A stretch of 64,000 bases of DNA from positions 1 through 64,000 of the forward strand of contig JASANG010004046.1 in the NCBI GenBank assembly GCA_030248215.1, in the 5' to 3' direction. The notes under the pieces were generated by a model. It saw only the letters and a program-made list of their open reading frames with translations. It was not told where the DNA came from and made no database searches. Every line of letters starts with the position of its first letter. The first letter of the stretch is position 1. Of the stretch, positions 1 through 59,129 are shown one piece after another. This DNA is from Enoplolaimus lenunculus. Lineage: Eukaryota. The translations under genes and the position numbers were made by a program.

Positions 1-328
1 TACCAACAGTACACTGTACAAACTTTCGTTGATACCTGTGCAGCATTAAAAGCCGTAGTGGATGGCAGTTTTTCAGGTAGGTTGAATCTCAAGTTGAAAT
101 CAGAAGGAATCCTGATCGCCAAGCCAAGCCAGAACTCCACTGTGACATGCGGATGCATGGAGGCAAATAATAACCTCATGCTGATGCTGTACATCGGTAA
201 AAACACTGCTGCATATGTAGTGCCTTCATATGCAGCAGCAGTAAAACATTGAAGAACCAAGATACATGTGTATAATGTTGAGGTTCTTATAAGGCACAAA
301 AACAGAAAAACTCAGCAGTTGATTGTGA

Positions 329-411
329 GGCGGCGTGGCTCAGTGGATAGCGCGCTGGACTGAAAATCTGTCGATCCGAGTTCGAAACCAATTGGGAGCG
401 TCCCTCATTTT
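329..411 (+). promoter_or_regulatory. tRNA-derived Pol III internal promoter (A box/B box) in LTR1
   Basis: A box TGGCTCAGTGG 336-346, B box GTTCGAAAC 380-388, anticodon-arm-like GGACTGAAAATCT, then TTTT 408-411. The D-arm resembles tRNA-Arg, but the acceptor and T stems do not pair well, so it is not a functional tRNA. Confidence 0.8.
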
Positions 412-757
412 CAGCTGCTGAGAACTAAAAACTGAAAAACTGTCGTACCCTAGCCTACCCAACTTATCACATGGTGACCACGATGGGACCGCAATGGCAA
501 ACTGCCGCGGTAGAACCCAAAATACATAAGTTGGCGGTCAAGGGGCGACCTTGTAGAAAAACCGGGGGATGTGACATGCGGATGCATGGAGGCAAATAAT
601 AACCTCATGCTTATGCTGTACTTCGGTAAAAACACTGCTGCATATGTAGTGCCTTCATATACACCAGCAGTAAAACATTGAAGAACCAAGATACATGTGT
701 ATAATGTTGAGGTTCTTATAAGGCACAAAAACAGAAAAACTCAGCAGTTGATTGTGA

Positions 758-840
758 GGCGGCGTGGCTCAGTGGATAGCGCGCTGGACTGAAAATCTGT
801 CGATCCGAGTTCGAAACCAATTGGGAGCGTCCCTCATTTT
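758..840 (+). promoter_or_regulatory. tRNA-derived Pol III internal promoter in LTR2
   Basis: Copy of 329-411, identical by eye, ending in TTTT 837-840. Confidence 0.8.
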
Positions 841-1032
841 CAGCTGCTGAGAACTCAGAACTAAAAACCGTCGTACCCTAGCCTACCCAACTTATGACAT
901 CCACTATTTAGTTCCGTTTTTAATAAAAGATATTAGGTGTTTGAAAACTGTTACACTGTATTAGAAAAGCTAACAAAAATTGTTTGTGTATTTGCTGGGT
1001 AACAATAACACAAATGGCCAGCTAGTATTATC

Positions 1033-1578
1033 TGTAATAAGTCAGTTAGGCCAGATTTCACGACTGTTTTCAGTGCTTACGGTGCAGCTGAAAATGGTGG
1101 GCGTTCTCACGAAGTAGTTAATCCCGGGACCGACAGATTCTGGGTGAAGCGCGCTACTGCTGAGCCACGTGGCCTCACAATAAGCTGATGTATTTCTGTA
1201 TAGATATGTGCTCTTCGTGTCGGTATCTTACCACGCATTTTTAAGAGTTAAAGTTGGTTCCTCTATTCAAGCATGTGAGACATGTAGTCCGTTATGTACA
1301 CATGCAATATAGTGCAGTGCACTGCATGTATGCTAGGTGGCAGCATACGGTCGACACATATAGGCAACGAAACGTAGTTGGAGAAGCAGACTGCGTATTG
1401 CTGTGGTAGAGTGTTCGCTTAAGGATCCGTATGCTGAGAGTTCGATCCCCGCTCTGGAGGCCCGCTTATTATGACATCTGCGTATGTGCATTTTGTGGCT
1501 TCACATATGTATTAGCATTTCAGCGATGTGCAGCTATTAAGCTGAGCTGGTGTGGTCTACATGCGTCAGCCTGTCACA
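1033..1578 (-). mobile_element. Diverged solo LTR of the tRNA-LTR TRIM family (interrupted)
   Basis: The reverse complement starts TGTGACAGGCTGACGCATG (compare TGTGACATGCGGATGCATG), contains ATTGTGAGGCCACGTGGCTCAGCAGTAGCGCGC...AATCTGTCG...CATTTTCAGCTGC and ends GCCTAACTGACTTATTACA (compare GCCTACCCAACTTATCACA). The TSD is not clean. Confidence 0.75.
1274..1476 (+). mobile_element. Putative nested solo LTR or SINE-like insert with a different tRNA-like cassette
   Basis: TGTGA...TTATGACA ends; tRNA-like GCGTATTGCTGTGGTAGAGTG...GAGTTCGATCCCC at about 1393-1450. Its size accounts for the extra ~200 bp in the 1033-1578 solo LTR. No TSD seen. Confidence 0.45.
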
Positions 1579-1627
1579 TTCTTTGCAATGTGGCTGTTTT
1601 TGTGTTTTTCAAATTTGCGGATGCCTG

Positions 1628-2010
1628 CGTTAATATACGTGGTGTAGCGTGTGTATGTGCATAGTGTATGTAATGTAAGGGATATATATACACGTGCACA
1701 TATAGTACTAGAAAAAATATGATATCGGCCGCGTGTGTTTCGGAAAAATTAAGGAAAAACGAAGTATATTCGCAGTACTTTGAGGAAAGGGTCGTTCCGA
1801 CCGTGTGCAGTTCTGACATGGAGGTCCCATCGAGATTGGCGCTGTAAATTGCAGGCCCATAAATGTGGAGAAGTTTGGATTCGGGGTCCGGTACCACGGC
1901 CTGATGAGGGGGAATGTTGGTATACGTGGTGTAGTACGTGTATGTGCATAGTGTATGTAATGTAAGACACATACATACACGTGCATATTTAGTACTATAG
2001 AAAAATATTA
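1628..2010 (+). mobile_element. Second, degenerate TRIM primed by tRNA-Gln
   Basis: LTR1 ~1628-1818 ends ..TGACA. PBS TGGAGGTCCCATCGAGAT (1819-1836) has one mismatch to the tRNA-Gln PBS TGGAGGTCCCACCGAGAT. PPT GAGGGGGAA is at 1906-1914. LTR2 starts TGTTGG at 1915 and repeats ATACGTGGTGTAG..TGTATGTGCATAGTGTATGTAATGTAAG, then is truncated at about 2010. Confidence 0.75.
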
Positions 2011-2266
2011 ATGGGTAGTGCGCTTGACTAGTTCTCGAAAGGTCCGATGTTCGATTAAAAACTGAAAATTGCTGTAGGCGCTGCGGTGGTAACCCAACTG
2101 GAATCTGAAATTTAGAATATTTGGAATATAAAATCGTATTAAAAACAACTATATAAATTGAGCATAACATAAGTCCATCTCTGTACAGATTGTAAAACAT
2201 ATTGAGGTCCCTACGATATATAAACAATGTGCTTACCATTGGGTCTTTTCAGTATCTTACGGTGAC

Positions 2267-3958
2267 ATGATCAATAACAGAAATATCACAACTGACAATG
2301 TTTTGGCTGAAAGTGTAACACCAGATGGCAAAATTATCCCGTCGCACAATGGATCGATAGTCGAAGCGCCACCGGGACTATTGTCTTCCAAGCGATCGCA
2401 GTTTCAAATTACTGCGATTTCAGGGACGTCAGACGCAGAAGCCAATGTAGCAAAGTTCAGTTCATTAGCTAAGTCTAGCGGCCAGCATGTTGACACGGAA
2501 AATACCAGACGCCGTCGACGCACGCCTTCACGCAGTTCTGGCGGCGAAGAACAGTTGTATTGCAGCGACTATTTGCCATCGAAAAGCGTCGCGACACCAT
2601 CCACTTCTTCTGCTGAATCAGCATCTGCCGTTATAACTGCAGAAACGAACGGAAGTCTTTCAAGCTGCGATACGGTTTCCGCAACTGCAACCGAAACGAC
2701 AACGCCGAACAATGCTGGCTCAGGTGATGATGACGTGGATTCAGTGACGTCACCAACTGAATTTTGCTCTGCAGACCGTAACGCAGTGTTTATTTCGGAC
2801 AATAGTTCTTCCAGTGAGCGGTGTAGACCGATTGAAGGATGGTCGGTTTCTAGTAATCGAGAGATGTCTAAAAATGCGCGAATGCTTAAAGACGTTGTAT
2901 CCACGTGTAGCTCTGGTGGTTCGGGTGTGGTCACTGGCAGAAGTGATTCATACAATGTTAACGCACAAGTTTTGCAGCATACTGGTAGGTGTAAAGCAGC
3001 GAGTTCAACTGAAGGAAGATCAAGCAATAGTAACCCAGTGGTCGTTGCTGCTGCCTGTCGTACGGGTAATATTGTTAATATAGCACAGGAGCGTGGACCG
3101 CGAAACGTACCACCGAATTCTCAAGCGTTTAGCATTCTTGCGACACCACTTCCGGCAAATGGTGTTCATATTGCCCATAATGCAACCGCTGTACCCGCCG
3201 CTGCGGCGCTGTTATCTGGTGTTGCAGCGGCCGCTGCGGCGACAGCTGCATCAGATATTGCTGATCAAATCAGTCATGCGTCCAATTGTGCGAATGGCTC
3301 TCTTCCACGATTTCGGGTTGTCACTGTCGAGCGAGAACCGTTTCGCAGGGGCAGATGGACGTGTATGGATCATGCGGATCCGTCACCGCTTGGAACTGCA
3401 GCTGCAGTTCTTGCCGCTGCCGCAACTTCTGATAACTCGCCCCGTGTAAGTCCAATCGCGACAACTGTTTTGATGCCTTGTTCAACGGGAAGCCGAGATA
3501 TCAACTCCGCCGTTCCTACACCACAGTCTTTCAATGATATTATTCCTGTTTCGATATCGGCTCCGTCTAGTCGGTCTGGTGAGATCGGAGGATCTGAACA
3601 TAGTCTTCTGACCAGCTTAGCTGATAGCGTTGTTCTTGAGCACATTTCATGTCAACAGCCTAAGCAGCAAGCTCCAATGGTCGCAATTGCTGTACATTCG
3701 CATCCATCGCAAAATGATATTCCAACGTCGTGTGGTAGCTCAAATATTACAAACAGTAGTGCAACAGGCATAAACAGCTCTTCACTTGCGCAACATTCAA
3801 TCATTCCCTCAACTAATGTGTTAGTTATGGACAGGGCGACTGGGTCAACGCTTGTGTCTATTGCTACTCGGGACGGTCAAAATAGTTCGGCCTTTGCGTT
3901 GCCTGCCGGCATAGTTGTTTCTGATAGTCAATCTAATGTCATTGGTGTGCCTCAAAAG
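2267..3958 (+). CDS. TSC22D: TSC22-domain family (bunched/TSC22D-like) long isoform, coding exon 1
   Basis: Motif 1 KRSQFQITAIS (2390-) and motif 2 RFRVVTVEREPFRRGRWTCMD (3308-3370) are typical of long TSC22D/BunA isoforms. TTTTCAG acceptor at 2246-2252 upstream of the ATG; donor AAG|GTAATT, phase 0. Confidence 0.92.
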
Positions 3959-4959
3959 GTAATTAATATTAATTGTTTCATCTGATAGTTGACATTTTTC
4001 TCAATGTACAATATTTGTTATTCAGGACAATATAAAAGAGCTATACTTGTAGTGAATGAAAACAAGTATTCAGAAAGTGGTATTGCAGCAAAATTTACTG
4101 TGATTTTTACATCCTGAAATTACATTAAATTTGGTTTGTCTGATATGTGTATTGTACGGTGTGAGTGTTTGCAGTTTGGGCGACATAGTCGCCATGTATT
4201 TGGTCAATTAAGTATTTCGCTACACGACATATATACATAAGGTGTAACCCGAAATTTGGTTTTGCTTTTAAATCCAGCATTTTTGCCGGAATAACTGGAT
4301 AGTGTTCGGCTTTGGTAAGTTGAGTTTACTTAAATTTTTTGAGTGATGCGGTTTTATAATTACGTATAATTAGCGAAGTGATTGCTAACAGAGTAATGAA
4401 TTCATTGATTAAAATTTGTGTGTATTTGTATTCACTACTGAAGACAAACCTTTGTTGCAAATATACGTCACCCATATATTGTTAATTTGTGAAAAACAGC
4501 ACTTATTAGATTACCAGTTGGCGATAGGTCTTGTATCTTCCGAACTTCAAAATGGTTAGGTTCGTAATTTGGCGCTTTTTTGATTTGATTTATGTATTAT
4601 ATACCGTCGTCTGAAATCAACATTCACAGCTATCGCAGTTCGCTTGATTTAAAACCCATCACTAAGTATCTTGACGTCCTGCGCAGTCCGTCACCATATA
4701 GCAACTACGTTTATTGCCGCATGGAAAAGCATATCACTTTTAAACAAAAATTTTTTGACGTGCGGTGTCGTCCGGCGCCGCACGACAAGTATATCGCCAA
4801 CCAAAGTGATTATACATAATACGTACTGCATGTATTTGAGAATACGATTTCTGATTATAAGAAATTAATACTTATGTATATTCCTGCGTGCGGTGCAGCA
4901 CTATAGCTTAATGATTGCGGAACATTTGGCTACACATAAATTTATATTATGTGTTGTAG

Positions 4960-20372: not shown

Positions 20373-20790
20373 GTTTAGATTAACGGGTCGCTTGGTGTAA
20401 AACAATATCCTATTGTTGTTATTTTGAACTACTGTAGTGACCCGAATAAGAGGGGGACTGATATTTGTTTGCCCTTTCCAGAGGGTGCCCCCCTGTTATT
20501 CGATTACGGACTATTATTTATTTTTAACCCGCCCTTCGCCACCCTTCGGTACTGATATACATTCGGTATTGCAACTATCCGTTGAATTAGACGTTTGTCT
20601 TGTGTCAAAAGTAGGGAACGACAACGTATATAAAATACAAAAAGTTCAACTGATTGTTTCGCAAAATTAGTCAACAAAACTTACAGCAACTAAAAAAGAA
20701 GTCTTTAAAATTTTTATGTTTGTTCTTCTTCCGCAACAACACTGGTCTTCACGTGGATGTCATTAGCCTGACATTCCAACAAAGCATTAA

Positions 20791-21053
20791 CCCTTTCTCA
20801 CATGAATATTTTTAATTTCCCGTGAGACCTACTTTTATGCTAGGATTAGAACTCTAGTGACTGGAGCGGGAGGCGTATACCATCACCACTCAGCTATAGG
20901 AGCTTGACGCTCGAGCCCGAGAGGGCTCTCACGTCTTGTGGTGATTTAGTACTACGTTTACGTGTTGCAATTGTTAAACCATGGTGCGATATATACTATT
21001 TAACGTATATACACTGCGCTGAGTTGCCTACAGGCAACTCAATGTGAGAAGGG
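20791..21053 (-). mobile_element. piggyBac-type (TTAA) MITE carrying a tRNA-like A/B-box cassette
   Basis: TTAA|CCCTTTCTCACAT...ATGTGAGAAGGG|TTAA, 263 bp. The internal reverse strand reads GCTCCTATAGCTGAGTGGT...GAGTTCTAATCC. Hairpins GAGTTGCC-TACA-GGCAACTC and GAGCCC-GAGA-GGGCTC. Confidence 0.85.
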
Positions 21054-21556
21054 TTAATGCTCACAAAGGGCTTATTAGATTACGTACGCATAGTTGAAAT
21101 ACATACACCAATTTTGGTATGTTTTTGTTTGTATATATATCAAATTTTGGATCCGGAGATGCGGTAGTATATTTTACCGGATCCGGATTCGGATCCGGAT
21201 CTTAAAAATTGTAGAGATCCGGCCCGGATCCGGATCTCGGATCCGGTTGATCCCTAGTCAAAAGCTTGAGCGATAAAGCTAGGTTATACTTTGAAATGCA
21301 ATTTTAAAACTTAAGCATGCTTTAAAGTTTGGAACTCAACTTTGTTTGGTCCTGGACTCATTTATGCGCGGTAATGTGTCGGTATTTGGCAGGATCCCTG
21401 CCCATGTCCCCAAGTTTTCCAGCTGCATGGTCGAAAGGTTGGTAGTTCCCGACCGATCTTATCTAACTACATTTGTAATTTTCAAGAGCAGTGATAAGAT
21501 GGGGTGTCGATGCCAAAGAGACGGGTGCCCTCCTTTTATTGGACCAAGTGACTATC

Positions 21557-24197: not shown

Positions 24198-24612
24198 CAG
24201 GGTGCAACCGGAATTCCGGTTCCGGTTCCGGTTCCGGCATTTTTTCACCTTCCGGTTCCGGTTCCGGTTCCGGTAAATTTTTACCGGATTTAAAAATTCC
24301 GGTATTATAATTTGGCCGTTTTCTTAACTTTGCTAATTTTTAAGAATCTCTTTTGAAAGCCACTTGTACTCCGAATATAAGCCATTGATGGTGGATTTTA
24401 CTTCAGTCGATGATGAAAATCTAAAATACAACAAATAAAATAAATACCTATGTTCGACTAAGGTTATTTCACAAATAATAGAGCAAAAAATACGATTAAA
24501 ATGAAATTTTTGGTGAAATGCATTTTTCATTTTCCGGTTCCGGTTCCGGTTCCGGTAAAATTTTCAAATTCCGGTTCCGGTTCCGGTAAATTGTAATTCC
24601 GGTTGCACCCTG
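24198..24612. mobile_element. hAT-type MITE, (CCGGTT)n family, young copy
   Basis: TIR CAGGGTGCAACCGGAATT / AATTCCGGTTGCACCCTG; perfect 8-bp TSD ATTGGTTG. A near-identical inverted, one-end-truncated copy lies at 41613-~41981. Confidence 0.9.
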
Positions 24613-30323: not shown

Positions 30324-30375
30324 CCCAACTGGTACAAGTGTGATTGCAATCGATAACAAAATAGAGCAAGCCATG
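30324..30375 (+). CDS. TSC22D: TSC22D-like shared exon: TSC box N-part (PTGTSVIAIDNKIEQAM)
   Basis: TTTTAG| acceptor, ATG|GTAAGA donor; IAIDNKIEQAM is the hallmark TSC-box sequence. Confidence 0.97.
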
Positions 30376-30701
30376 GTAAGATAGTAGTTGCAGAGTAAAT
30401 CGGATATTTTATCTGTTTCTTAAAGGTCGTTTTTTGAATTTTGGACGAAGCGTTAGATTGACGCTATACTTTCTGATTGATTTTAATGCTGAGCGGCTGT
30501 TTAAGTACTGCATGATTTTTTCGAGCATCAGCGTTGTTTGTAATTTTATCTTTTGGCAAAGTGAACTCTGCTGAGAAATATTTAATTCAACGAAAAACAC
30601 TTGTTTCGCAAAGCGTCGTTGTGTCACGTTTAATTACCTCTTTTGACACAACGAAGTTTGTTCTCAAAAAATTATTTATTCAGAAACGTTTCGTTTTGCA
30701 G

Positions 30702-31226
30702 GATTTGGTAAAAAATCATTTAATGTACGCCGTACGCGAAGAAGTGGTCGTTCTGAAAAACAAAATTGTTTCACTAGAAAAGAAGTTGCATCGTCTCGAA
30801 TGGGAAAACAGTATTTTGCGTGAGTCGGCAAGTGTTGATGTACTTAATCAAATCAGTGCAGCGTTTGCTGGCGCAACAACAGTCGATGCAAGTACGCCAC
30901 CAACGGCAACAACAGCAACAATTACAACAACTGAAAATGTACGGCCGGCAAGCGGTGCAGCAGCGCAGTTGCATGCGATCCCGAGCGGTGGAAACGTATC
31001 TAGCGATCAAGGAGGTTCTTTAGCTGCACTTTCGACTCTGAATCAGCAAGTTTCGGGCGTTGGATCTATGGTAGATGGACATGGGGTTCCTACCGGTAAT
31101 CGTGAGCTGTCTGTTAGTCAAGTTGAGCAACAGCAAGCAGCACAGGTTTCTGCAAGTAGAGGTACAAGAGATATGGCCGGGACAGGACCAGAGTCTGCAG
31201 GGGGTCCACAGAACACAACGGGATAG
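30702..31226 (+). CDS. TSC22D: TSC22D-like terminal exon: TSC box C-part and leucine zipper
   Basis: TTTTGCAG| then DLVKNHLMYAVREEVVVLKNKIVSLEKKLHRLEWENSILR with heptad leucines; stop TAG at 31224-31226. Confidence 0.97.
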   Translation, partial: DLVKNHLMYAVREEVVVLKNKIVSLEKKLHRLEWENSILRESASVDVLNQISAAFAGATTVDASTPPTATTATITTTENVRPASGAAAQLHAIPSGGNVSSDQGGSLAALSTLNQQVSGVGSMVDGHGVPTGNRELSVSQVEQQQAAQVSASRGTRDMAGTGPESAGGPQNTTG

Positions 31227-34380: not shown

Positions 34381-34718
34381 CAAACATATAATGCCGATGT
34401 GGCTCCTCATATTAACCTCATCTGATGATTTCAATTAAAATGTAATTTTTTAAGGCTAAATTATATACTTACGGAACCAAAAATGTATATTCAACAGTTT
34501 AGAAATGTTTATTTTTTCATGCATATTACTGTGTGAAAGCGACTAGCAGTGTTGAATTGCGTCATTTTTGCGTTGGATGACAGGTTCAGCGCTCCTAATT
34601 TACTATTTTTTGCCATGTTGAAATTCATGTGCTTTGCGGTACGGTGCCGTGCAGTGGCGGACGGCGCCGGACGTCCCCGAAAGTGGTGACTGGTTTAGCG
34701 CACCTAATTTATTATTAA

Positions 34719-34981
34719 CCCCTTCTCACATTGAGTTGCCTATACGCAACTCAGCGCAGTGTATATACGCTAAATAATATATATCGCACCGTATTTAACA
34801 ATTGCAACACGTATACATAGTACTAAATCACCACAAGACGTGAGAGCCCCCTCGGGCTCGAGTGTCAAGCTCCTATAGCTGAGTGGTGATGGTATACGCA
34901 TCCCACTCCAGTCACTGGAGTTCGAATCCTAGCATAAAAGTGTGTCTCAGGGGAAATAGAAAATATTCATGTGAGAAAGGG
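34719..34981 (+). mobile_element. piggyBac-type (TTAA) MITE with tRNA-like cassette, second full copy
   Basis: TTAA|CCCCTTCTCACAT...ATGTGAGAAAGGG|TTAA, 263 bp, inverted relative to 20791. A box TAGCTGAGTGG at ~34876 and B box GTTCGAATCC at 34920-34929. Confidence 0.87.
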
Positions 34982-36701
34982 TTAATTTTTCATTTACTTT
35001 TGCTTAAAAATAAAAACCAAGAGTATTAAGAAGCTCTTCTTCCTGCAAACGAATAAAACTGTATATTGTGTAAACGAAACAACAACTATAAGGTAACATA
35101 TGCATGCTAACAGTTAGCACATAAATTTTTTAAGCCATGGAAAAAAGTTGATGTCATGTAGAAATTCATGTGCTTTGCGGTAGAGTATCATACGGTGACG
35201 AACGGCGCCAGACATTATCAAAAGTATATCGCCATCCTAAGTATATCTATAATTTACCTCAAACTCAAACGTCGAAGCTTTGGTACACTAAATTACTTTT
35301 CATGCACAAGGTCCAACGCAGGACCGAGCTTATGACAGTATCCCACAGGATATAAGAAAAGATAGGTTTGCAGTAACACATTGAATTATAAAAACTTTTC
35401 TGGCAGTAACTATGATTGGAATGCGACCAAAGGAAAGGGACCAAAATCAAACTGCTCTAAATTTACAAAATCTACCCACAAAAATCGTCAAGGATTTAGT
35501 TAATATTCTGACTGAGGCTTCAATACTGAATTTTTTCGTCACTTCCAGCTACTTTAATGGTGAAACACTGTAAATTATACCAAAAAAAATTTTTATACAA
35601 TAGCATTTCAGATATCCGGATATTTTTCAGATCCGGATATCTGGTGCACACTATGGTGTATACACAACATATACGCAACTGCACTAAAAATTTAGTCGCC
35701 GGTAACTTTCTAATCAGGGTGCCTGCCGTTCTAACATTAGACAATTGAACTCAGCACGTCATTAGAAAAAGCCGCTTTTTATTAAACTCATAAGGGCTTC
35801 TTCAGATTCTGTACCTTGTCTACTTTTATTTAGCTTCCGTGATTGCACTATTTGCTTATAATATTTAGCGTATTTGCTTTTAACTATTATATACATTGGT
35901 GTCATGGTTATATACGCAGAGATGTCATGGGGGTGGGATCTCCATGGGATGTGGGATGGTGGATCAGTTCAAAATTGGCGGGGTTTCCACACCGCCCCGG
36001 GGTTAAAAAAATTTAACATACGTACTATGGAATAGACAGTTCTACATATCGGTAATTGTCAACGGTAATCTCCGTGTATTATCAAGGTCACTTAGGTTCG
36101 CTGACAGACACAATATACTACCTTACAATGCAAGTTGAAGAGTTTACCGAACATTCTCAAGGGCCTGCAAAAGCACAAGATTCGGGCGGTAAATGCTTTT
36201 AGAAAGCTGCCGCGTACACGGACCTCACCATTTTAATTCAATGCTATATTTTTCAGTTCCACTACGGACATTTTTCTTCAAATTTTGATAAAACTGTTCA
36301 CAAAATCAAAGATTTCGAAAACTTTCGCGCTTTGCGCGAACGCAGAGTATGCAAACTAAAGAAATCGGCTTGTATTTTGTTCAGTACTCTGGCTGTTATG
36401 TTTTAACCACTCGGATCCTCACATTGCAACATGGGGTTACGCACGCCCCTGATCGCTGAAATTCGGCCGATGCCCCATATAAGGCGGTGCTAGTTTTTAT
36501 CTGCAAGATCACAACATTCCTTGATGCCCTTCCAGCGATTTCTAACAAGGCTTGCGGTTTCAATTTGCAGCTGCAAGCTTTTTTGCACAAACTTGCACGA
36601 TTGCATGTGGCTTTAGCCTGTCTTCAAGGTATTAAGGCACAATCAAAAAATGGCAAATACCAATTAACAATATTAGGCGTCATTATCATTGGTCACAAGT
36701 T

Positions 36702-38090: not shown

Positions 38091-41000
38091 ACATACATGT
38101 CTTAGGTGTACTTCGGTAGTGCAGTACAGCTCAAGAAAAATTCGAAGAATCAATATGTTTAGAGCAAGGAAAAATATTGAACCAGTTTCGTGGATATGGA
38201 GCTTTCATGAAATCTTGCTCAGTGGCGTATCCATTCTGGTCCATGTAAAGATCAGGGGCGAAACGTTTTTCAGTAAGATTAAAATAGAATAAGCTTAAGC
38301 TGTAGACTGCTTCTTTGCTTTGCTTAGGCTTAGGCTTAGGAATAAGCTTATAATACTGTTTTGCCCTTGTTCCTTACGTTGGCCGTAATTCTTATGGTAA
38401 ACAGAAACATGCATTAAAACTAGATTGGCAATCCAGAAAAGTATCTTTTCCAAAATCCGTCATCCGAACTGGACTCGCCTCTGATCTCCGTTTCCAGTAT
38501 GAAATTCTTGGCTTTTATATTTGTGAATAGACTGTTGCCACTTTCTGTTATGGCTATAACTTTTCAATTGTTAACATTTTCTTATCACCGATGTATTACT
38601 TGCGTATGATATTGCTGGATAATTCTAGTCTACATTTCATGCTTGTAAAATCTTAGTTCACATTGGTTCGGTATAGTCCTTATACATTAGTTTTTGGAAA
38701 GTGGCAGATAAAACACAATTTCTGAACAAGTATTTTAGTATAAAAGGTTCATAATTGTTCGAGTTTAGAGTTCGACAAAATTTGCCAGAGCCGAAGACAT
38801 TGTAAATGGACAGTTTAAACGTGCTGAATTTGCTAATTGTGTCCTGAAGAAGTTAACAAGATGTTATAATCGTTAACCATATATAGACAACAGGGTACAA
38901 CCGGAGGTGCAAAATACGTTGAAATTATATATGTTTAATTTGCGAGTTTTACAAATATCAGCAATTTGTTGTTAAATCTCTTGGTTTTACGCTTATTTTC
39001 TACGAAATGTCAGAAATTTCTTCCTTAAAATTCACCAAAAGTTTTAATACGAAACGCACCAAACGAACAAATTTTATTAAGCAATGCAAAATTTCACTAC
39101 CAAAATTGTCGGAATCTTCGACAGAAATTTTGTCGGAGCCGGATTTCGCTTTTCTGCTGCAGCTGAAACCGGAGGCATACCTCCGGCTGTACCGTGATAG
39201 ACAGACATCCGGTAACATCCGCCTATGAAAGTCTAACTTACTTAGTGAGTTTATCTTATAGGCTGAGAAATTAGTTGCGAACCTGTCGACACAAATTTTC
39301 TGTTTTCATATAGACAGCGGTTTGTTTCAAATGCACTAGACTTGCTGTCGTTAGTGTCAGGCAGAGGTCTTACTAAATTCAAACAGAAATATCACAGTCT
39401 TCAATCCGAATAGCCCTTGTGGCTCTTGGTAAACAGATTCGCGTCATTAAAATTTTTTTGTTATCGCGATCCAGCAATTTTATTGACATGATTATTTTAA
39501 TGATAATCCTCAAAAGTGCTGACAAAGATGTGTTCTCAAACTTTTTGGAAAAATATTGGCAATAAAATTTTCTAAAATTGCTTTAAAGTTACGAACGCAC
39601 TCATTGACACGCGCAACTCGGAAAAATGTCGAAAGTTTCATAACCGAAACAACAGGAGCTTCCGGAAAAAAATTATCGGAGCCGGGAGTCGTTTTTTTAC
39701 CGAGATGAGGCAACCCTTACGTTGTATTCTGTTGTATGAAATTTAAGAAAACAGAAAAGGGCCCTGAACTATTAATATCTTGAGCTTTGAATACTTTATT
39801 CATCCCGAATATGTATATACTAAATATAAACGTGCCGAACAACGAAAATGGAAATGTGATCAAAAACGGAAACAGACGAAGCATAAAACAAAACTTGCCT
39901 GAGGACCAGCCGTAGGTGACGCGAAATTTAGATGGGTTATAAACAATGTTTAATTTGCTAATTTTAGCAAATAACTTTAAAGCGTTGTGAAAAATCTCGA
40001 ATATTTGTACTCAAAATTATACCATTCGCCGAACGCACCGTACCATACCTACATTTTTTGTAAAACTATAAAAGCACTGCCGGTTCGGTCGATTTTCTGC
40101 TGGAGCCGGAGGCAGACCTTCGGATGTAACCCTGCAATTGAAGCATGCAAATATTAACTTTATGTTCTATAATTTAGTTAAAAAATATAAGGTATTCTAT
40201 AGAACAAGGTTTCATGCATTCTTCCATTTCTGGTGTGAAACCCTCAAACGACTTAATGCCACATTCTTTGAGTTTGTCATCAAAACACTCGTCGGCTGAA
40301 AACATACAAATAAAAAACTAAAAATGTAGCTGTATGTAGTGCCCATATTCTCAAATATATGCAGCACCAATTTCCATTTGATGATTGGTCCCATAAATTT
40401 CAAACCAGTGAATCGCGAACTGCAAAAAATTGGCAAATTTTATAGCATTTTGCTGCTCCTACTGATGCGCCAAGTTTGAAGTTGTTAGCGGCCAGAGTCA
40501 GCTTGCAGGAGACACATTTGAGAATACGCGCCTATGGCGGCATTATTTTAAGTTTTTGGCGTTTCAATTGCACGTAGAAATTTGCACGTGTACTAAGCCA
40601 TGTATATTTTTACGCTGACAAAACAATAGATTTTTGCGGAACAACTGTAAAACAAAGTTTATATAACCCTTTCTCACATGAATATTTTCTATTTTTCCTG
40701 AGACCTACTTTTATGCTAGGATTCGAACTCGACTGGAGTGGGAGGCGTATACCATCACCAGTTGCGATTATCAAACACGGTGCGATTATAGATGGGCACC
40801 GGATATCCGGATATGAAAAATATCCGGATATGTATCCGAAATGAAACGTGTATCCGGATATCCGAAATGCTTTTGTCTAAAATTTTTTTTGGAATAATTT
40901 GCATGGTTTGACCACCAAAGTAGCCGGAGCCAGGGTTGTTGGCCGGTAAAAAATTACCGGAAAAAATGGTTTTTTCCATTTTTTCCCATTTTTTTCTGAG

Positions 41001-42374
41001 GGGGGAATGGAAAAAATGGAAAATATTAAACGATTCTTAAATATAGTTTGTAAAGTAAATATGGTATAAAATAACGTTTTTAGGTGACATCCAACTAATT
41101 TTCCTGCAACATATTAACAGTGACCGTGTCCATATGTCCACCAGGACACATTTTGGGCCCTGTGTGGCCACTGAATAATTACGCTGGTCAGGCCTACTGC
41201 GCGAAACGTCTTAGCTAGGGGGTTGGGGGTGACATGTTGTGGTTATTCTTGCCTTGGTGATTGTCTGAGACTCCCAAAACCGCACAAATTATGCAAATCA
41301 ATCAATTATGGTGGCTCGGGCAGCCTGCCTCCATAATCATTATATACTTTGAGCTAGTTATGTTTGCGGCGAATTTTTTTACGGTTTTTGATTATTAAGT
41401 TGCATTTGGCGGATTAAATCTTATTGAGTGATTGAATGGTATAGCGGTGTTGAAGACTTAGGCAAATCAGTTTAGAGTTTATAAAAGTTACGGTAGCTCT
41501 GATGTGAGCCTACGGTGCACCGGCGTAAAGACATCTGGTAAAAGTTGCGCATAGTGCGGAGCCTAAGGTCAGTACTGGGGATTTACGGGATTCTTGGGGG
41601 ATGTGTTAACGGCAGGGTGCAACCGGAATTACAATTTACCGGAACCGGAATTTGAAAATTTTGCCGGAACCGGAACCGGAAAAGGAAAAATGCATTTCAC
41701 CAAAAATTTCATTTTAATCGTATTTCTTGCTCTATTATTTGTGAAACAACCTTAGTCGAACATAGGTATATATTTTATTTGTTGTATTTTAGATTTTCGT
41801 CGTCGACTGAAGTGAAATCCACCACCAACGGCTTATATTCTGAGTACAAGTGGCTTTCAAAAGAGATTCTTAAAAATTAGCAAAGTTAAGAAAACGGCCA
41901 AATTATAACACCGGAATTTTTAAATCCGGTAAAAATTTACAGGAACCGGAAGGTGAAAAAATGCCGGAACCGGAATTCCGGAAATTTCATTTCGGATATC
42001 CGGATATCCCGATATATCCGGATAAATATCCATCAAGAATTGCCGGATATCCGGATATAAAAATATCCGATGCCCATCACTAATTTCAACATATATTATC
42101 ATTCATTTACGCGATAACGGACGATATCGTATTTTTGAATCATTTGAGTTCGAGATTCTCACAAAAAGTTTGCGAGTGCGCGAGATCCAGGTGTTTTGCA
42201 GTTCGCACCATGGAGTTCTAAAAACCTAACAACAATAGCTCTAAAAGGTGTAAAGCCATTGTTGCAGGTTCCTAAAAACAGTCGGCGCAGGGTGTATGAA
42301 ATCCGGTAGAATTTTGGCCCATGTTATGCTGACGGTCGTCCCGATGTCCCGGACAACGGCAAGGAGGAGTGCAG

Positions 42375-45634: not shown

Positions 45635-46844
45635 ATTTTAACAGGAGTGTTGCCACCCCCTGTATCTCTCACACTTGAAAGGACCCTAAGCGGGATGGGG
45701 GGCTGCCGCCCTCCAAGCCCCCCTGCTTTAAGCGATCGTGCTTACCAAACCAAAAGTAACAAGAAATTTTAAGAATCGTCACGTATGCACATACAGGAGT
45801 AGCAAATGCTACTCTCCGGCACTATTGCTGTCTGGCGGAAAAACAGGGCGCCCGTGAAAGTAAGTACATGGGCCGTCCCGGCTGTTCCACTGTCCCAGAT
45901 GTCATCGCTGTGCCAGCTGCCCACGCTTTCCCAGCTGTCAAAGCTGTCCCCGCGTTTTCGGGACAGCGGAACGGCCCTCAGCGTAAACACGGGCCGCATT
46001 TTTTTCCGCCAGCAAGGGATTTTTCGTGAAATACTCAAAAATTAAAAGTTCAGCTTAACGCAAGGCACCAAAATATATAAAAGGTCAAAATCTTTGATTT
46101 ATCACAACCGTATTCCTGTTGCCATCCTGGTTCGCGAGTTTACTTGTTATTCGGTTACGGACTGTTATTTATTTTTAACCCACGCTCCGCCGCCCTTCGT
46201 TACTGATATATATCCGGGTCTGCAACTATCCGTTGAATTAAACGTATATTTGTCTCGTTTCAATAGTTTGAGCGATATATAATAAAAGGTTTACTTAGGA
46301 ATGTACTTTCAAAATTTAAGTAGGCTTTAAAGTTTCGAACTCGAATTATTTGGTCCTGAAGTCATTTATGTGCTACAATTCGGGTTAATTGACATTTATG
46401 GACTCTAATTAGGGACTCTATCCGCTTACGGACTCTTATTACGGATACGGACTCCTATTGCTTCGGACCCAAAATGGGGACCTCCCTCTTATTCGGGTGA
46501 ATACAGTAGGTAATATATAGACAGTAGGGTTCAACTTAAATTTCTATTCTGGCGGAAATTCCTGCAAAAATTGAATTCCTGTTTTTGTACCGTTGTGGAA
46601 AAACACTGGGACTGGATTTTTTAAATTTATGGCAAATTCTGAAGAATAACCTTAACTGATAATTTCAGAACTATCTCGTTAGCTTTGTAGGCTCTCACGT
46701 CTTGAGGCGATTTTGCACTGCGCATTAATTAGCTTTTACCCTTTCTCACATGAATATTTTCAATTTCATATGAGATGTAATTTCAAGGTAAGATTCGATT
46801 CCCAGTCTGGCCCATGTTACTATAAAGGCCGTGATGCTGATTTC

Positions 46845-47516
46845 GATCGCACAGTCCAGTTTCGTGTTTATTGGTCTGAAGACAATCCACATGTCACGAT
46901 TAACAAAGAGGTCAACGCCCCTGAAGTCTGTGTCTGGGCCCAAATTTGTTCACAAGGCATCGTTGGTCCATTCTTTTTTGACGGAAATATCAATAAAACC
47001 AGCTATTTGGAACTTTTATCTGTGAATGTCTACCCGCAAATCGCAACCGAGTACCTTGTTTTCATGCATGACGGAGCCCCAACTCACTACGCTATCGAAG
47101 TCCGCGCTTGGCTTGACGAAAGGTTCCCGAATCGATGGATCGGCCGCAGAGGTGCCATCGAGTGGCCATCTAGGTCACTAGACTTAACTCCGCCTGACTT
47201 CTTTCTTTGGGGTGTTGTGAAAGATATTTATGGAAGTACGGCGAAGGACCCTCAAGAATTGGACAGAATAAAATCAGCGTTTTCTAAAATTCCAGTGGAC
47301 CTATGCGCCAAAGTTTGCCGATCTGTACCATCCCGACTGGAGACATACGCTCAGCTTGGCGGTGCACAGACTGAGCTGTTCTAAGATCTACCGTCGTAAT
47401 GTAAGTAAACTTTATATACTTGTCTCTATAATTATACAAAAAACAGGCGAGCTACCTCTGCCCAGTCAACCAATAGTTAGCATCAAACAGTGGGAAGTTA
47501 CTTCTGAAACACCCGG
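46845..47516 (+). pseudogene. 5'-truncated Tc1/mariner transposase of DD41D (rosa/Visitor) type with right end
   Basis: VYWSEDNPH...VCVWA..GIVGPFFF..FMHDGAPTH..WIGR..WPSRSLDLTPPDFFLWG, with 41 residues counted between the second and third catalytic Asp. The N-terminus and first Asp are absent. The element ends GAAACACCCGG|TA. Confidence 0.88.
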
Positions 47517-47781
47517 TATAATATATATATATATACATTAAATATATGTTATATACATAACATATGCATATATATGTATATACATATAAATATATACATT
47601 ATATATAACATATAATGTATATATAATATATACATATGTACATATTTATCAACTGTTCAATTCGTCCCAACTGTCCCATCTCTCCAAACTGTCCCTTCTG
47701 TCCTAAGTGTCTCATCTGTCCCAAGTGTCCCATAAGTCCAAACTTTTCCATTTGTCCCGACTGTCCCATCTGCCCCGTTAA

Positions 47782-48040
47782 CCCTTTCGCACATATTTTC
47801 AATTTCATATGAGATGTAATTTCAAGGTAAGATTCGATCCCCAGTCTCATGGTTGGGAGGCGTTTACGATGACCACTGAGCTATAGGAGCTTGACGTCTT
47901 GCCCGAGTAGGCTCCCACGTCTTGTGGAGATTTTGCACTGCGCATATATGTTATATATGTTAAACACCGCTCATAGTGTGTGTATTGCTCGTACATTATT
48001 GTGTTTAGTTGCTCATAATATACTCTGAGTGAAAAGGTTA
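47782..48040 (-). mobile_element. piggyBac-type tRNA-cassette MITE, second subfamily
   Basis: TTAACCCTTTCGCACAT start; reverse strand reads GCTCCTATAGCTCAGTGGT..CGCCTCCCAA..GGATCGAATC; ends GTGAAAAGG TTAT. Partial relatives at 40667-40760, 42561, 43060-43246, 46739 and 48070-48200. Confidence 0.7.
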
Positions 48041-50505
48041 TAGATACTAAGTAAGAATTTTTTCATTAACCCTTTCTCACATGAATACTTTCAATTTCAT
48101 ATTAATAAATGTAATTTCAAGGTAAGATTCGATCCCCAGTCTCATGGGTGGAAGGCGTTTACGATTACCTCTGAGCTATAGGAGCTTGACGGTCGAGCCC
48201 GATTAATAAAACACGCCTGATTTTACGTATAAGTTTATGTGTATAAGCGCTTCGCAGTATATTGAAACTAACTATAAAATTTTTCAAAATCCTCATTGAT
48301 CGATGAGAAACTCTAAACGATTTAACCCGATTACATTATTCCATTCATTATTTTCAAACTTACTTCAATAAAAGATTTCAGTATTTCTTCTAAGACAACG
48401 TAGGAGGGCGCCGGATATTCGGATATGAAAAATATCCGCATATGTATCTGAAAAAACGTGTAATCGAATATCCGAAATTCGATTGTGTAAATAATTTTTA
48501 GAATAATTTGCATTGTTTTACCATTAATGTAACTGGCTGTCAGGGTATAACCGGAGGTCAACCTCCGGCTCCAGCTCCGGCAGAAAATCGGCCTAATGTT
48601 ACGGCAGAACTTTTGCCGGAGGGTCCGGCAATTTCGGAAGTAAAATTTTGCAAAATTTATCTATTTGAAAGCATTTCCTTTTACTTTCGTCCCAATTTTC
48701 AGGAAAGAATTTCCGAAAATTCGCAGAACATTAGCGTAAAGCCAAAATGGTGAAATGTTTATTTCACAAACCCATACAGCTACATACTATATAGTAATGC
48801 ATATTATGATCAGTATGCAACACAACATTCCGCGGCACAATAACTGACAACGCGCAAGACCATATAAAAATGTATTATTGAACCTCAGTGATGATTAAAT
48901 GCCAGTCCATCACCAAACACAAGCGCAGATATTAAAGCTAAACAGGAATGAGAACAATAAACCACAAACCTAAATGTAATAAACAAACATATTTCAGCGC
49001 AGAACACCGTAAACGAAAACACCTATCAACCGAAATAAGTCCAATCACAGAATAGTTTTCTTAAAACTAAATATCCGTTAACAGCTTTTATTGTCGCTAT
49101 TACATCAGACCAGCCAAAAATATGCATATATAATCAGACGTTTACAAATAAGTATGTTTCAAATATATTAACAAAAAGATATAGCGGCTACTTCAAATTA
49201 AACAGCAGATTTAAGTCTACGAAATGTTTGTGAAAAACAAAAACAATATATATAGGTCATTAAGGTCACCAACACGTATCGATACATATAAATTACGGAT
49301 ACAATGCTAAGCTTCATCCTTAAAAATCGAGAACAGTTTTTCCTGAATTTTCATTAAATGACCTATAAATTTATTATGTATTTGTAAACATCAACATGTT
49401 TCAGATTCATGGTTCACTCAAAGGCTACAGCGATCTGAAACAGACAGCTTTCCGCTAATATCTCATAGCCCTGAGAGCAGACGAAACAAAAAACTGAAAA
49501 TGATTTAAAACTAAGTCGAATTGCTCAAAATGACTCCTTGTCTCCTAACTGTGACGTAGATCTGACTTTTAAATAAGTTCAGATTGTAGAGACTGCGGTG
49601 TTTGAGTTGCCTGAGCGCACTGTCTGTCAGCATTGAAATATCTAAGTGTTATGAAAAAAATCGCAGATTGCAGTATTGCAATGGAACAAATTCAATCGCG
49701 ACGGAGGTTAATATTTAACATCTCATAAGCTCCACGATTACAAAGAATTATGTAATAGACAAAAACAAGTAGATATACATTACTTAAGTTCCTGCCTAGT
49801 CTTCGGTTATTTTAGAACACCTGTTAAATCACTGTATTACAAGTTTAGAATATATAGATGTAAAATGTGTATTAAAAATTCGGTAATGAAACAACATTGC
49901 GAAGACACGAAAGGACTATTTTCACTTTCATATTAATTCATTTTGTTGTTTGTTTCGGCAGGACCAATACAGCAAGACAATTACATGCACATTATACACT
50001 TAGTGCAACAACAGGTTCATAAGACATCATAATAGTATAAAAAGACCGACTGAAGATATTTACGTAAGAAAACACAAGACAATATGAACACACTACGGAA
50101 ATACAGGTAATGAACAAGTAAGTTGGAAAAATGCTTAAGTGCAGTTACAAACATGTGATAAGTTACGGCAAGCAAGCCGTACTCGACTGCTATCATGAAG
50201 TAACTATACACATCGATTAGTGCGAAAAAGATGAATTGTAAAAAAAGCATTGCTATGCTGTAACTTTTGTACAAGTAGTATTAATCATGTGCATATAATA
50301 ATTTCTATCGGCACCTTGATCGCTAGTCATTTAAACCATATAAATGATTACAAAAGGTACACGCACATATATACGTCTTGCAATAGAAAACAACGTAGTT
50401 ATCGCATAAATAAGCAATATAGATCATTCACCATTAATTAGTTACATACACAAAACACTGTCTTGTTTTAAAACTCAATTAAATGCCGTTTTGGCCACAC
50501 CACCT

Positions 50506-51013
50506 CTAGTTTCCCGTTTGTGATGCATTAGTAATGTTTGCGACAATATCGGCAGCGCTGTTCACGTCGACGTCAGAAATCGTACCGAATTCTTTAAGCA
50601 AAAGTGGTTGTAGGGCAGTTACAGGTGGATCCTGGGTCACGAGATTACATGAATCATGGTCTTGAATAATTTCAGCTACAATTGTCATACCAGTATCCGC
50701 CGAATGCGATCTTCCGCTAAACACAACATTGTCATAGCTGACAGTGCTAGTACTAGTACTACCACTAGCTGGTGTCTTTACACCACCGCCACTGCTGCTG
50801 CTGTCACCGTGAAGGGTTACATTACTGGTGTCAGTCAAGCTTTGCTGCGTGTTCAGGTTATCGCTGCGCAAATCATCCACAGAAACTGCGGCTGTCGGCC
50901 GTCGTGATATGGATAAGTCAGCGGTACTTAACGGTGCCGTCACATCAACACGAAATTGATCTTCTATCACAGCGTTGCCACTTTGGCTTACCGATGTCGT
51001 TGTTGTTGTTGTC

Positions 51014-51074
<61 letters not shown>

Positions 51075-52702
51075 CAGTAGTTATCGACGCCATGGATATA
51101 TAATGGTTGGCAGAACCGGTATCGTTACTTGCAGGTTTACGATGTTGCTGCTTGCCACCTGACGTCCCGGATTTAGTGTTGTTTTTGTTGAAAACGCCGT
51201 TTACCACAACCTGAGCTAAATCGAACGCCTGTAAAACCGGATCAACACTCAAAGGACCACCGCCATATGTCGTTGGTACCACACTCCTTTGTCCAAAAAC
51301 GGCAATACTATTATTTAGTTCCCTGTTATTACCTAAAGCTTGTTGCACACCAAGCACATTTGCAACGTTGTTACCACACCCGGATGCACCACCTATAACA
51401 ACAGCTGACGGTGGACCTGGCAGATTCAACAAAGTGTGCGGTTGAGGAGCGCGTGGCGGTGGTGCATGTTGTAAAAGCGATTGTGGTGGCAAAGTTACTG
51501 TTGCACTGATTGGGGGAAGCATTATACCACCGAGAACATGTGGCGCGCCCATTCGCACAGGGCCATCGAAACTGCCAACACCACCACCGCCATACAAACA
51601 CCGCCCGTCGTCAAAACTTGCGCTCCGACTTAACTGAAGAAAACTGCTGTTGGCGCTTGGCACATCGCCAGCAGCGGTAGCGCTATTTGCAAGCGACGGC
51701 GATTTTTGTTGTTGTTGCGGTAAGCAATTGCTGCCGGTAAACACGCGGTCAGCAGAATTACATTCATCACTGACCATACTGGTTCTGTGATGAGATGATC
51801 CAGGAGGTGGCTGAGAACTTGGCGGAGGTGGAGGTGGGACGGCAAAAACAGCAGCCGAAGGCGGTGGTTGTTGCAGCATTAAGGGAAGCGTCCCCGGTCC
51901 CACAGCAGTTACGTGATGTTTTCGGTTGTCAGTAACATTTTTGTCGTCGTCGTTGTTGTTAGGGCCAGCTGCAAGCAATTGTGGCGCCGCCGCAGACAGA
52001 CGTATCGCCGAATGTAATGGGGCACGCGACTGATCAGCGACAGATGGCGGTGGCGGCAGTTGTTGCAATAATGCAGTTGGCTGTAAAGGCGGCGGCCGAC
52101 TATACTGCTGAACTGGAAATCGTCTAACCGCTCCAGTAGTAGTAGCAACATAATTAGCGCCGCGAATTGTAGCTGTTGCATCTTTTAGCTCATACTTTGG
52201 AGGAAATCCACTACTGACCGTCGGACGTAAAGTTTGACTATGAAGCGCTGAAGTGATTGCTGATTTCGTTCCAGTATTCGTTGCCTTAATATTCCGACTG
52301 CTTGCCGTCAAAGTTGTGTCAGGTAAATTTCCAAATGTTGCTGCTGCAGTGTAACTACAACCGTCGTCTCCACCGTTATTATTGTTCGCTGTGATCAATA
52401 AAGAAAAATCATTTGGTGTATCGTTTGCTATATGGTCAGTGTTATAACTGTTAGACATCATTACGACGGGCGGGGGTAATTCAGTGAAAAAATACGGTGA
52501 AACCGCTGCTGACGAACTTGCAATGGTTGGCTGGGGTGTTGCTACTCTTGTAGCAACCGATGCGGTAATCATAGAAGCATCGCTCTTTTTGTTATCGGAG
52601 GAAGCATCCGCCACTACTACAACATCACTCGGTTTATAGGGGGCAACAGTTGCCGTCGGGTTACCAGATCCAGATGTACTTGTTTTAACTGCCAAATTTC
52701 GA
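50506..52702 (-). CDS. PRRC2: PRRC2/BAT2/nocte-like protein, terminal exon (Pro/Thr/Ser-rich, poly-Thr)
   Basis: Acceptor TATTTTAG| at 52703, phase 2 matching the donor at 54115; 731-codon open frame to TAG. Confidence 0.7.
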
Positions 52703-53129
52703 CTAAAATAACAATAATCGGTCGCAGCGTAACTCATGCTTACTATTTGCATTCCCTATGCTCAAATACCACATGACGCGCAACTATTTATTGAGTAATA
52801 AAACCGAAGGTATAAGATAATAGCTTTACTGTCACAGCTCACATACCAAACATGCTAATTGTTGATCAGCTAACTAATTTAAAGTGTTCCAATTTCTAAA
52901 ACCTATATTTTAATTTTCTATGAGCAAAAATCCCTAAAGCCAATAGCGCACAATCTTGTCGCTAACTATTATGGATGTACCGATACCAGTGTGCACCCGG
53001 AATTACAATTTACCGGAACCGGAAAATGAAAAATACATGATACCAAAAAATCTATTAATATCGATGACAATTCTTATTTTAAATTTCGCCGATGCTGATT
53101 CCAACTTTAGTACATCATGCCGGATATGC

Positions 53130-53744: not shown

Positions 53745-54114
53745 TGAACACTTAAAACCTAACCATCATATACGATTAGAATTTTATAAGAACGGTTCAG
53801 TTCAATTAATTTTTTCAAACACAAACGCAAGAGAAATACCAGTTTTCCTGACCAAATACACAGATATGCGCCCAGAAATAAACTGATAGCGTTCCTACTG
53901 ACTGTTATAACTGCCTTTAGTACTGTTTCGCCGTCACGAAGTCCGTTTAGACGCGAACGAGCCGTATTTATGAGGGTGCAGTGCGACCGAATGTGCGGCT
54001 CCGGGTAATACGCCTAAGTACTCGGAGACGGATTGAGTATACTTTTAGTATCGGTTCGCTCCCTGGTGTTTGCAAACGACCACAGCGTTTCACAATTAAA
54101 CCAAGCAAACTAAC

Positions 54115-57100: not shown

Positions 57101-58768
57101 ATCTTGTATTATCCGCCTGTGATACACTGCGGCCAACAGTAAAAGCACTAGTATCCGATATGATACCATCAGCAGCATTATTGTTATCTGCAATATCATT
57201 ATGATCAGCTGTGTGGTGAACAGCCAAATGGTTACCAATAACGGCATCGTTTTCTCGATTCTGTTGCGGACAGTGCGGAACCGGTTCGCTCGATGAGTCG
57301 TACGGCTGTGCTTCTCTGCCACCCGTATCTCGATTGTTGACCACTCTCAGATGGTCACTGGTACTACCTGCATTAGCGCCATCATGATCATCATTATCCC
57401 AAAACGTTTTGACTGATGCAATTTTCAAATTCAGCTCATCGGCACACGGGGAAGTCATTTGTTTCGGTGCTGCAGCGTTAATATTGCCTCCGCTAGTTGT
57501 TGTTGCGGTTTCCAAATGATGCTGGCCGGCCACGGCAACTATGCCACCAGCGTCAGCGTTGGCAAGTAGATCTGTTGATGTCGTTGGCATCATCGAAACA
57601 GTCGCCACAGAAGTTGCTGAGCTCTGTAAATTTCTTAGCTGGCTCATCTTGGTTGTTGATGGTACGTCGGTCGGTACGACGCATGTTCCGCGCGGTAAGC
57701 GACCAGGCGCCGGCGACTCAACATTTTCACAACTATTACCACGGCGACTAGCAACCCCATGGTCTTTGTTGCCGTTAGCGCTTCCCACAATATCGACAGC
57801 ATCGCTTTCAGCCAACGCGGCCGCAAGTGACGCATCGAATGTAAAATCCAAGCGAAGACCATCATCGTCGACGCCGACATCATTCTTTTGTTCCAAATAC
57901 ACGTCTTGCTGTTGCAACCGTTGACGGACCACGGCGCCATCTGCTACTGCTGCGCCTGTAGACACTGAAGCGGGACTATGTTGTTGACTACTACCTCCAA
58001 CATTAACAATATGTCCAGTCGGCGCTACGCTCTGCAACTGTATGCCATCTTCTGTTGCACTACTTATATGGTCACGTTGGTTATCTTGTTGTTGTTGTTG
58101 TTCTTGTTGCTCTAGTTGAGATGTGTTCACCAGGTTATCACAGGCGCCTAACACCCCTGTCGCATCTTTCGAAGATGTTGTGACTCGGGTACCACGCACT
58201 GAGGGCTGTGGTGGCATACCCCATATTTCAGTGCCTGTCCTTGAAGGTGTGCTAGTCGCGTCGCTTCTTAAATATATCCGTGATGTTCCTCCAGTAGAAC
58301 GTTGGACATTTACACCTGTTGCTGCTACACTACCACCACCACCACCACCACGAGTTAGATGTTCTTGTGGCTCTTGGTGGTGGTGATGATATCGACTGAG
58401 TTGTTCTGACTGTTGTACATTATCATTGTAATGTGTTGGATCGCAGCTAAGTTGTTGTTCTTGTTGTTGTTGTTGCCTCCTTATACTAGCCGCTGTTAAA
58501 AGTGGCGGCGGTCGGACATCAGATAAACATGCAGGATGGTTTATTTCACTATTATCCGGAATTTCCGCAGCGTTAGCTTTTTGACCAACTTTGCTACGAT
58601 GCTCGTGATGCAGTAGGTGTTCCTTTTGCTGATAATTGTTGCGAGCATATAAAAAGGACGCTCCTGTTGCGTCTTGTTGATGCGGTACTGTCCCTGTGGA
58701 TTGTTGCTGTAAAGATGGCGATGGTGGATTTTCCCACGTGCTAATAGTTGGTGGAACTGTGAGTGGCT
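54115..58768 (-). CDS. PRRC2: PRRC2/BAT2/nocte-like protein, 4.65-kb exon (Q/G/S-rich)
   Basis: TTGTAG| acceptor (phase 1) and AG|GTTAGT donor. Contains LDFTFDASL and DELNLKIASVKTFWD, which resemble conserved C-terminal motifs of invertebrate PRRC2/nocte as recalled. Confidence 0.85.
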
Positions 58769-59129
58769 CTACAATATAACACATGCAACAAAATAAGAAT
58801 AACGGTGATTTTTTCACTAGATCCACGTTGCTATTCTAACCGTCAAAGTTCTAGCGGAATACCAGTTCCGGCAGGAACGCCTGCAAAACGCCTATTCCTG
58901 TTCTGATTCCGGTAGTCAACGCGCAGAAACAGGAATTGTTACGTTTCGCTGAAATAAAAATGAACCCAGTAATTCGATGACGCTGTAGTTTGAAATTCCG
59001 TTCTCCCGTCCGGCGAATTTTCTATTGGAACCGTGATAGTACCTTGTTAAAACCGATTACATAAAATTTTTGGGGTATATATGTGAACAATTTTTCCTAT
59101 AGTGCCACACGCGCACAGGTCGCACTTAC

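Follow-up and report, generated by a model that had tools for sequence, protein, structure and literature searches.

Helenus elements (TRIMp3), described by Kojima in 2024, are TRIMs with tRNA-derived sequence in their LTRs; they range in length from 311 to 1263 nt, the longest listed LTR is 323 nt, and the animal families, which depend on Gypsy, make 4-bp target duplications (PMC10886601). Their promoter is stated in that paper to be unvalidated, and its main text makes no remark on Helenus terminators or read-through and mentions termination for Cassandra only. Cassandra, an element of plants, has a 5S-derived promoter (box A/IE/C) and carries a Pol III promoter and terminator in both LTRs, as described in the accessible parts of PMC7215508, PMC12486564 and PMC10853983. 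In the same parts of two of these papers, its transcript runs from the cassette of the 5' LTR to that of the 3' LTR, and read-through across LTRs is reported in tandem arrays (PMC7215508, PMC12486564). As far as those sections go, Cassandra is a precedent for the idea that we develop here, since it combines Pol III terminators in the LTRs with read-through transcripts. tRNA-derived SINEs share with the present element an internal box A/B promoter and an avoidance of T-runs in the transcribed body, but unlike it they have no LTRs, PBS or PPT, and they have one terminator, at or beyond the 3' end.

The window, by which we mean the whole 64,000-nt stretch of DNA analysed, holds at positions 141–899 a complete 759-nt TRIM with LTRs, primer-binding site (PBS), polypurine tract (PPT) and target duplication (Table 1). 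An earlier note on this DNA had assumed an LTR-PBS-PPT-LTR anatomy with a tRNA cassette from 329 and a T4 right after it, and this anatomy was borne out, the cassette having a box A and a box B. Both boxes match general consensus motifs without a mismatch and lie 44 nt apart in both LTRs. The sole T4 of the 429-nt non-redundant part of the element sits where a tRNA gene has its terminator, and the segment 758–840 is identical to 329–411, none of the nine LTR differences falling there. Two of these nine lie in the right arm of a 15-bp inverted repeat with a 3-nt loop (206–238) in the U3 of the 5' LTR.

Table 1. Features of the element and of the related pieces beside it (positions in the window)
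Feature	Position	Strand	Basis or remark
Left target-site duplication TCCAC, 5 bp	136..140	+	identical to 900-904
5' LTR, 331 nt, TG...CA ends	141..471	+	97.3% identity to 570-899, 9 differences
TATAA motifs, two, starting at 271 and 288	271..292	+	upstream of cassette
tRNA-like cassette: box A 336-346, box B 380-388	329..405	+	motif match
T4, predicted weak Pol III terminator	408..411	+	19 nt after box B
Predicted U5 (if R ends at T4)	412..471	+	inference
Primer-binding site, TGG start, abuts LTR	472..489	+	sequence
Internal region, 98 nt	472..569	+	no protein family match
Polypurine tract, 13/15 purines, abuts 3' LTR	555..569	+	sequence
3' LTR, 330 nt, TG...CA ends	570..899	+	alignment to 5' LTR
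Second cassette and T4: box A 765-775, box B 809-817, T4 837-840	758..840	+	predicted 3' R region
Right target-site duplication, 5 bp	900..904	+	matches 136-140
First T5 in flank	917..921	+	sequence; possible Pol III catch
Older related LTR	1033..1578	-	71% identical over 195 columns
Third tRNA-headed piece, TG...CA ends, nested in older LTR	1274..1476	+	box B at 1440

We also considered a functional tRNA gene for the cassette and rejected it: neither ARAGORN nor Rfam calls a tRNA there, and the sequence does not fold as a cloverleaf (z 0.0 and -0.4). Rfam gave no 5S rRNA match in positions 1–3000, where just three chance-level miRNA matches were returned, all outside the element. For the PBS, we take tRNA-Arg(UCG) to be an alternative primer candidate to tRNA-Trp. 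The site is identical at 14 of 18 positions, compared by eye, to the complement of honey-bee tRNA-Trp in Fig. S2 of Kojima (PMC10886601). Three ORFs of 75 or more aa overlap the element and had no Pfam match, and a search for an autonomous partner among the 131 ORFs of the window gave no RT, integrase or Gag family match. A weak DDE_3 transposase-like match was seen at 46683–47381 (+; E 0.0055, below the curated cut-off). Two scans of metagenome contigs with exact patterns matched nothing.

With a tRNA-like box A/box B cassette in each LTR, the element fits the definition of Helenus (TRIMp3; PMC10886601) and is a new member of that class. It resembles the published families in being a short, non-coding LTR element with a PBS and PPT, in a length that falls inside their range, in a cassette that is no functional tRNA, and in a T-run just past box B, as most fungal, wasp, brachiopod and nemertean families have. 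It differs from the animal families in its 5-bp rather than 4-bp target duplication (the 4-base flanks do not match here), in a PBS without an exact match to any animal class in Fig. S2, and in its lack of sequence likeness to them, judged by eye rather than computed. Its 331-nt LTR is also longer than any listed for Helenus. Ajax, a nemertean TRIM (PMC10886601), is likewise from an animal and combines a cassette of Pol III type with a target duplication of 5 bp, but that cassette is 5S-derived and a T4 follows the promoter in neither of its two LTRs. Cassandra has a terminal redundancy of 18 nt (PMC10886601), against a predicted 83 nt here, and a plant host and 5S-type promoter in place of the tRNA-type cassette; its transcription has been shown, whereas that of the present element is predicted.

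Three LTR-like pieces, each headed by a tRNA-like sequence, lie within 1.5 kb at this end of the window, which for the Helenus-type family holds one full copy and one LTR with 71% identity. This older LTR, on the opposite strand, is interrupted at 1274–1476, and its 5' piece (1477–1578) also aligns (score 50, against a maximum of 34 in 2000 shuffles). In it, box A survives together with a 13-nt identical block that holds the T4, while box B has decayed; its sense strand has one T3 and that single T4. The piece nested in it lacks any T3 over its 203 nt and carries no T4 either. For neither 1033–1578 nor the nested 1274–1476 could a clean target duplication be found. Close by, an 89-nt direct repeat (1629–1717 and 1916–2004; 85% identical, 287 nt apart) has a second copy that starts TGT after a purine tract and may be a decayed TRIM lacking a tRNA cassette.

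Elsewhere in the window, a 273-nt repeat occurs as a 92% identical pair at 20786–21058 (-) and 34714–34986 (+), with partial copies at 47778–47965, 48064–48205, 40664–40760 and 46731–46808. Its inverted ends begin TTAA-CCC, which we take to be like those of a piggyBac-type miniature element, and it carries a box A/box B cassette, the boxes 44 nt apart, the strand of the cassette having a single T3 and lacking T4. From its sequence it appears to be a DNA-transposon-like unit with a Pol III-type promoter. A 390-nt repeat pair (24220–24612, +, and 41613–41983, -) is 90% identical and has tandem hexamer arrays near both ends. The window also holds a TSC22-family exon (Pfam TSC22 at 30534–31223). 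Pieces of a TSC22/bunched-type gene lie at 2267–3985 (+), about 30325–30376 and 30702–31226 (+), and the TRIM sits about 1.4 kb before the 572-aa ORF of this region, on the same strand. TSC22 is an animal family, and the host is accordingly an animal; the matches here show 39–61% identity over 21–40% of the query, the named ones being in one insect and several vertebrates, and the Atlas matches of the TSC22-region query are TSC22 clusters. The 572-aa ORF carries a motif that we take to be that of the long isoforms. Two low-complexity ORFs, at 50506–52752 (-; 748 aa) and 54096–58826 (-; 1576 aa), had no Pfam match; the longer has a short motif presumably akin to PRRC2/nocte proteins, and a search with part of it gave no matches.

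The earlier note had seen in this element a + strand with many A-runs and hardly any T-runs, and had read the pattern as a leaky-terminator design. The counts themselves are exact: the only runs of at least three Ts on the + strand of 141–899 are the two T4s at 408–411 and 837–840, and the same strand has 15 runs of at least four As, 10 of them A5. Since the two T4s are the same position in two repeats, and so one site counted twice, the fair unit for statistics is 141–569 (429 nt). Nowhere else does the + strand of the window go so long without a TTT as in the segment between them, 412–836 (425 nt), and a longer gap of 441 nt lies on the - strand within a GC-rich exon. None of 146 raw 429-nt tiles of the window has as few as one T3 run or fewer, and 21 of the 146 have at most one T4 run, but the window is T-richer than the element; in overlapping tiles with a matched T fraction (n=135), at most one T3 run was found in 5 and at most one T4 run in 84.

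For 141–569, the probability of at most one T3 run was 0.11 with mononucleotide and 0.34 with dinucleotide shuffles; for 412–836, the probability of no T3 run was 0.029 and 0.094, and that of no T4 run 0.50 and 0.77. The T-run gap in this single copy is therefore weakly beyond chance (shuffle P 0.03–0.34), and the absence of a T4 on the read-through path is ordinary, as chance gives in one copy. The depletion of T-runs is accordingly modest at the level of T3 and not significant at that of T4, and the single copy by itself is no proof of design. The excess of A-runs is the stronger statistic in this copy: 141–569 has nine runs of at least four As against 2.9 expected, a number reached in none of 5000 mononucleotide shuffles (dinucleotide P 0.006). 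The 9:1 ratio of A-runs to T-runs of at least four has a P of 0.011 against 50:50, and of 0.37 once base composition is allowed for.

To set this copy beside its class, we used the Helenus/Ajax supplement (Data S1) of PMC10886601, by text search and by-eye tallies; its entries are related consensus sequences rather than independent samples, the 18 vertebrate entries amounting to about three lineages. The search found tttt 247 times and aaaa 230 times, and ttttt 44 times against 102 for aaaaa, counts that miss runs split by line breaks and, for aaaaa, take in purine tracts and PBS lines repeated in Fig. S2. The ttttt occurrences fell in an LTR downstream of box B in 43 of 44 cases and in an internal region in one; just two of the 44 were in the fungal section. 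By eye, in the part of the supplement covered, a run of at least four Ts followed box B in 55 of the 59 fungal LTRs read (of about 117; exactly T4 in 54), in 39 of 41 wasp LTRs (13 T4, 14 T5, 12 T6–7), in all six brachiopod and nemertean Helenus LTRs, in the single ctenophore and the single plant LTR, in 29 of 51 bivalve LTRs (none in the other 22) and in none of 18 vertebrate LTRs. Among 33 wasp internal regions in the same part, a T4 occurs in seven and a T5 in none; several internal T4s are present in the two wasp families that lack a run after box B.

This confinement of long T-runs to the site after box B is apparently unremarked: we found no statement in the literature on it, or on terminators or leakiness in Helenus (Kalendar 2008 and Maiwald 2021, which may cover Cassandra, lay outside this scope). 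Judging from these sequences, the class can do without the run: it is missing from both Ajax LTRs, from every one of the 18 vertebrate LTRs and from 22 of the 51 of bivalves. In the portion of Data S1 read, a pyrimidine-rich stretch with T3–T4 stands just before box A in many Helenus LTRs of bivalves and vertebrates (PMC10886601). By analogy, this stretch could be a second, Cassandra-like way of ending the RNA early in the 3' cassette.

The strength of such runs as terminators depends on the polymerase. In the available part of one yeast study, T4 is called 'essentially non-functional in vitro' and gains moderate efficiency when an RNA hairpin lies next to it; the shortest working run has five Ts, and fair efficiency takes six (bioRxiv 2021.08.27.457903). 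For human Pol III, the accessible part of another study gives 4T as the optimal terminator and read-through past terminators as common in cells (bioRxiv 2025.10.17.683076). Fungi that keep exactly T4 and vertebrates that lack the run fit a requirement for leakage, although the yeast and human strengths may not be those of this host. The T5–T7 of wasps do not fit it unless a small leak suffices, and the implied general rule that a short run means a leak fails, T5–T7 being the first run in 26 of 41 wasp LTRs.

We propose, at a rough probability of 55%, that the RNA from which this Helenus-type element is copied is made by Pol III reading through the weak T4 of the first LTR. Pol III would start near 329, and many polymerases would stop at 408–411 to give an 83-nt RNA, which the 3' LTR and solo LTRs would make as well; this small RNA is no test of leakiness, because 329–411 and 758–840 are identical. 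As the PBS lies past the first T4, any Pol III genomic RNA from 329 must cross 408–411. A fraction of polymerases would continue across U5, PBS, PPT and U3 as far as the second cassette and finish at 837–840, giving a 512-nt RNA, or beyond, for example at the flank T5. The 512-nt product would consist of the 83-nt repeat at either end, U5 (412–471), the internal region and U3 (570–757), and the cassette, being present twice, would act as R in minus-strand transfer, after which LTR reverse transcription, itself an established mechanism, would rebuild both LTRs. RT and integrase would come from an autonomous LTR element, one whose insertions leave 5-bp duplications.

The earlier note had offered this stop-or-read-through choice with an end at the second T4. 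The comparative data back its premise that Pol III makes the genomic RNA; the end at the second T4 is not required, because a longer RNA still carries R. If both T4s leaked with equal probability r, the share of transcripts ending exactly at the second would be r(1-r), at most 25%, a limit that would favour a stop of intermediate strength, and the T-run gap would follow from selection against further terminators along the stretch to be read through. The position of the T4, the 13-nt block kept in the 71%-identical LTR, the gap at 412–836 and the class-wide confinement of T-runs speak for read-through. Pointing the other way are the nested piece at 1274–1476, which has a box B and no T4, the TATAA motifs, which would also fit Pol II, and the wasp runs, which should stop Pol III well.

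A different account, which we consider unlikely though it has several observations behind it, is that the cassette and its T4 are a captured tRNA gene or SINE, either a separate 83-nt Pol III unit or inactive, while Pol II makes the genomic RNA, from TATA motifs in U3 or through host read-through; the T-run would then be the terminator that the tRNA gene brought with it, or else a downstream element rich in T. The two TATAA motifs could serve Pol III or Pol II, the wasp T5–T7 fit this account, the Helenus promoter is unvalidated according to Kojima (PMC10886601), and the element's place about 1.4 kb ahead of the long TSC22-region ORF, on the same strand, would suit host read-through. On the other hand, there is no AATAAA or ATTAAA within the element, all such elements are small, and it would be left unexplained why, across the class, 43 of the 44 T5+ runs stay out of U3 and internal regions.

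It is less probable still that Pol III makes the genomic RNA with the T4 as a non-working terminator, kept as one arm of a U5 hairpin near the primer site, transcripts ending at T-runs in the flank. In predicted folds the T4 pairs with downstream purine runs, with a possible partner at about 431–437 inside the predicted U5, and in the older LTR the hairpin reaches z -2.2 (6 of 200 shuffles as good). In both young LTRs, however, it is no better than in shuffles (z -0.2 and +0.2), and in unrelated Helenus lineages the run stands at tRNA-terminator distance from box B. That yeast T4 barely terminates, in the part of bioRxiv 2021.08.27.457903 available, and that a T5 lies in the flank at 917–921 are both in line with the hairpin account; with box B decayed yet the T4 kept, and the hairpin arm seen in the older LTR, conservation of the T4 may have another cause than termination.

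Very improbable, in our view, is that the T-run gap is a by-product of an A-rich, T-poor strand and chance, the T4 having no role. The composition of 141–569 (31.7% A, 21.7% T), the T3 probabilities of 0.11–0.34 and an expectation of 0.3–0.7 T4 per unit would all allow this for one copy, but neither the position and conservation of the T4 nor the class-wide confinement of long T-runs would follow from it. That the T4 belongs to a splice-acceptor-like motif (a pyrimidine run, then CAG) used by a host gene can be set aside: CAG does follow the T4 on the sense strand of the downstream gene region, but the neighbouring LTR, which lies on the opposite strand, has retained this block, making it a feature of the element family and not of a host transcript.

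Returning to Pol III read-through, a wider form of it can be put forward tentatively, and we hold it to be doubtful as a whole. Pol III LTR elements would tune the T-run after box B to the polymerase of their host, with exactly T4 where T4 is leaky (fungi, this animal) and no run where T4 is efficient (vertebrates), the remainder being purged of long T-runs. The T-run would mark the border of R and U5, a Pol III equivalent of the problem that two poly(A) sites pose to retroviruses, and the lineage of this copy would ride on a helper making 5-bp duplications that is not yet linked to Helenus.

Pol III transcription of Helenus was left open in the paper that named the class (PMC10886601), and the restriction of long T-runs to a single place behind box B is evidence, at the level of sequence, for a Pol III that crosses the whole element. 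Read-through predicts uncapped RNAs of about 83 nt and about 512 nt, both with oligo-U ends. The element itself is ordinary for Helenus, and its 5-bp duplication points to a helper that differs from that of other animal Helenus. If the proposal is true, a retroelement can use one promoter-terminator cassette twice, and terminator strength can be selected to be weak.
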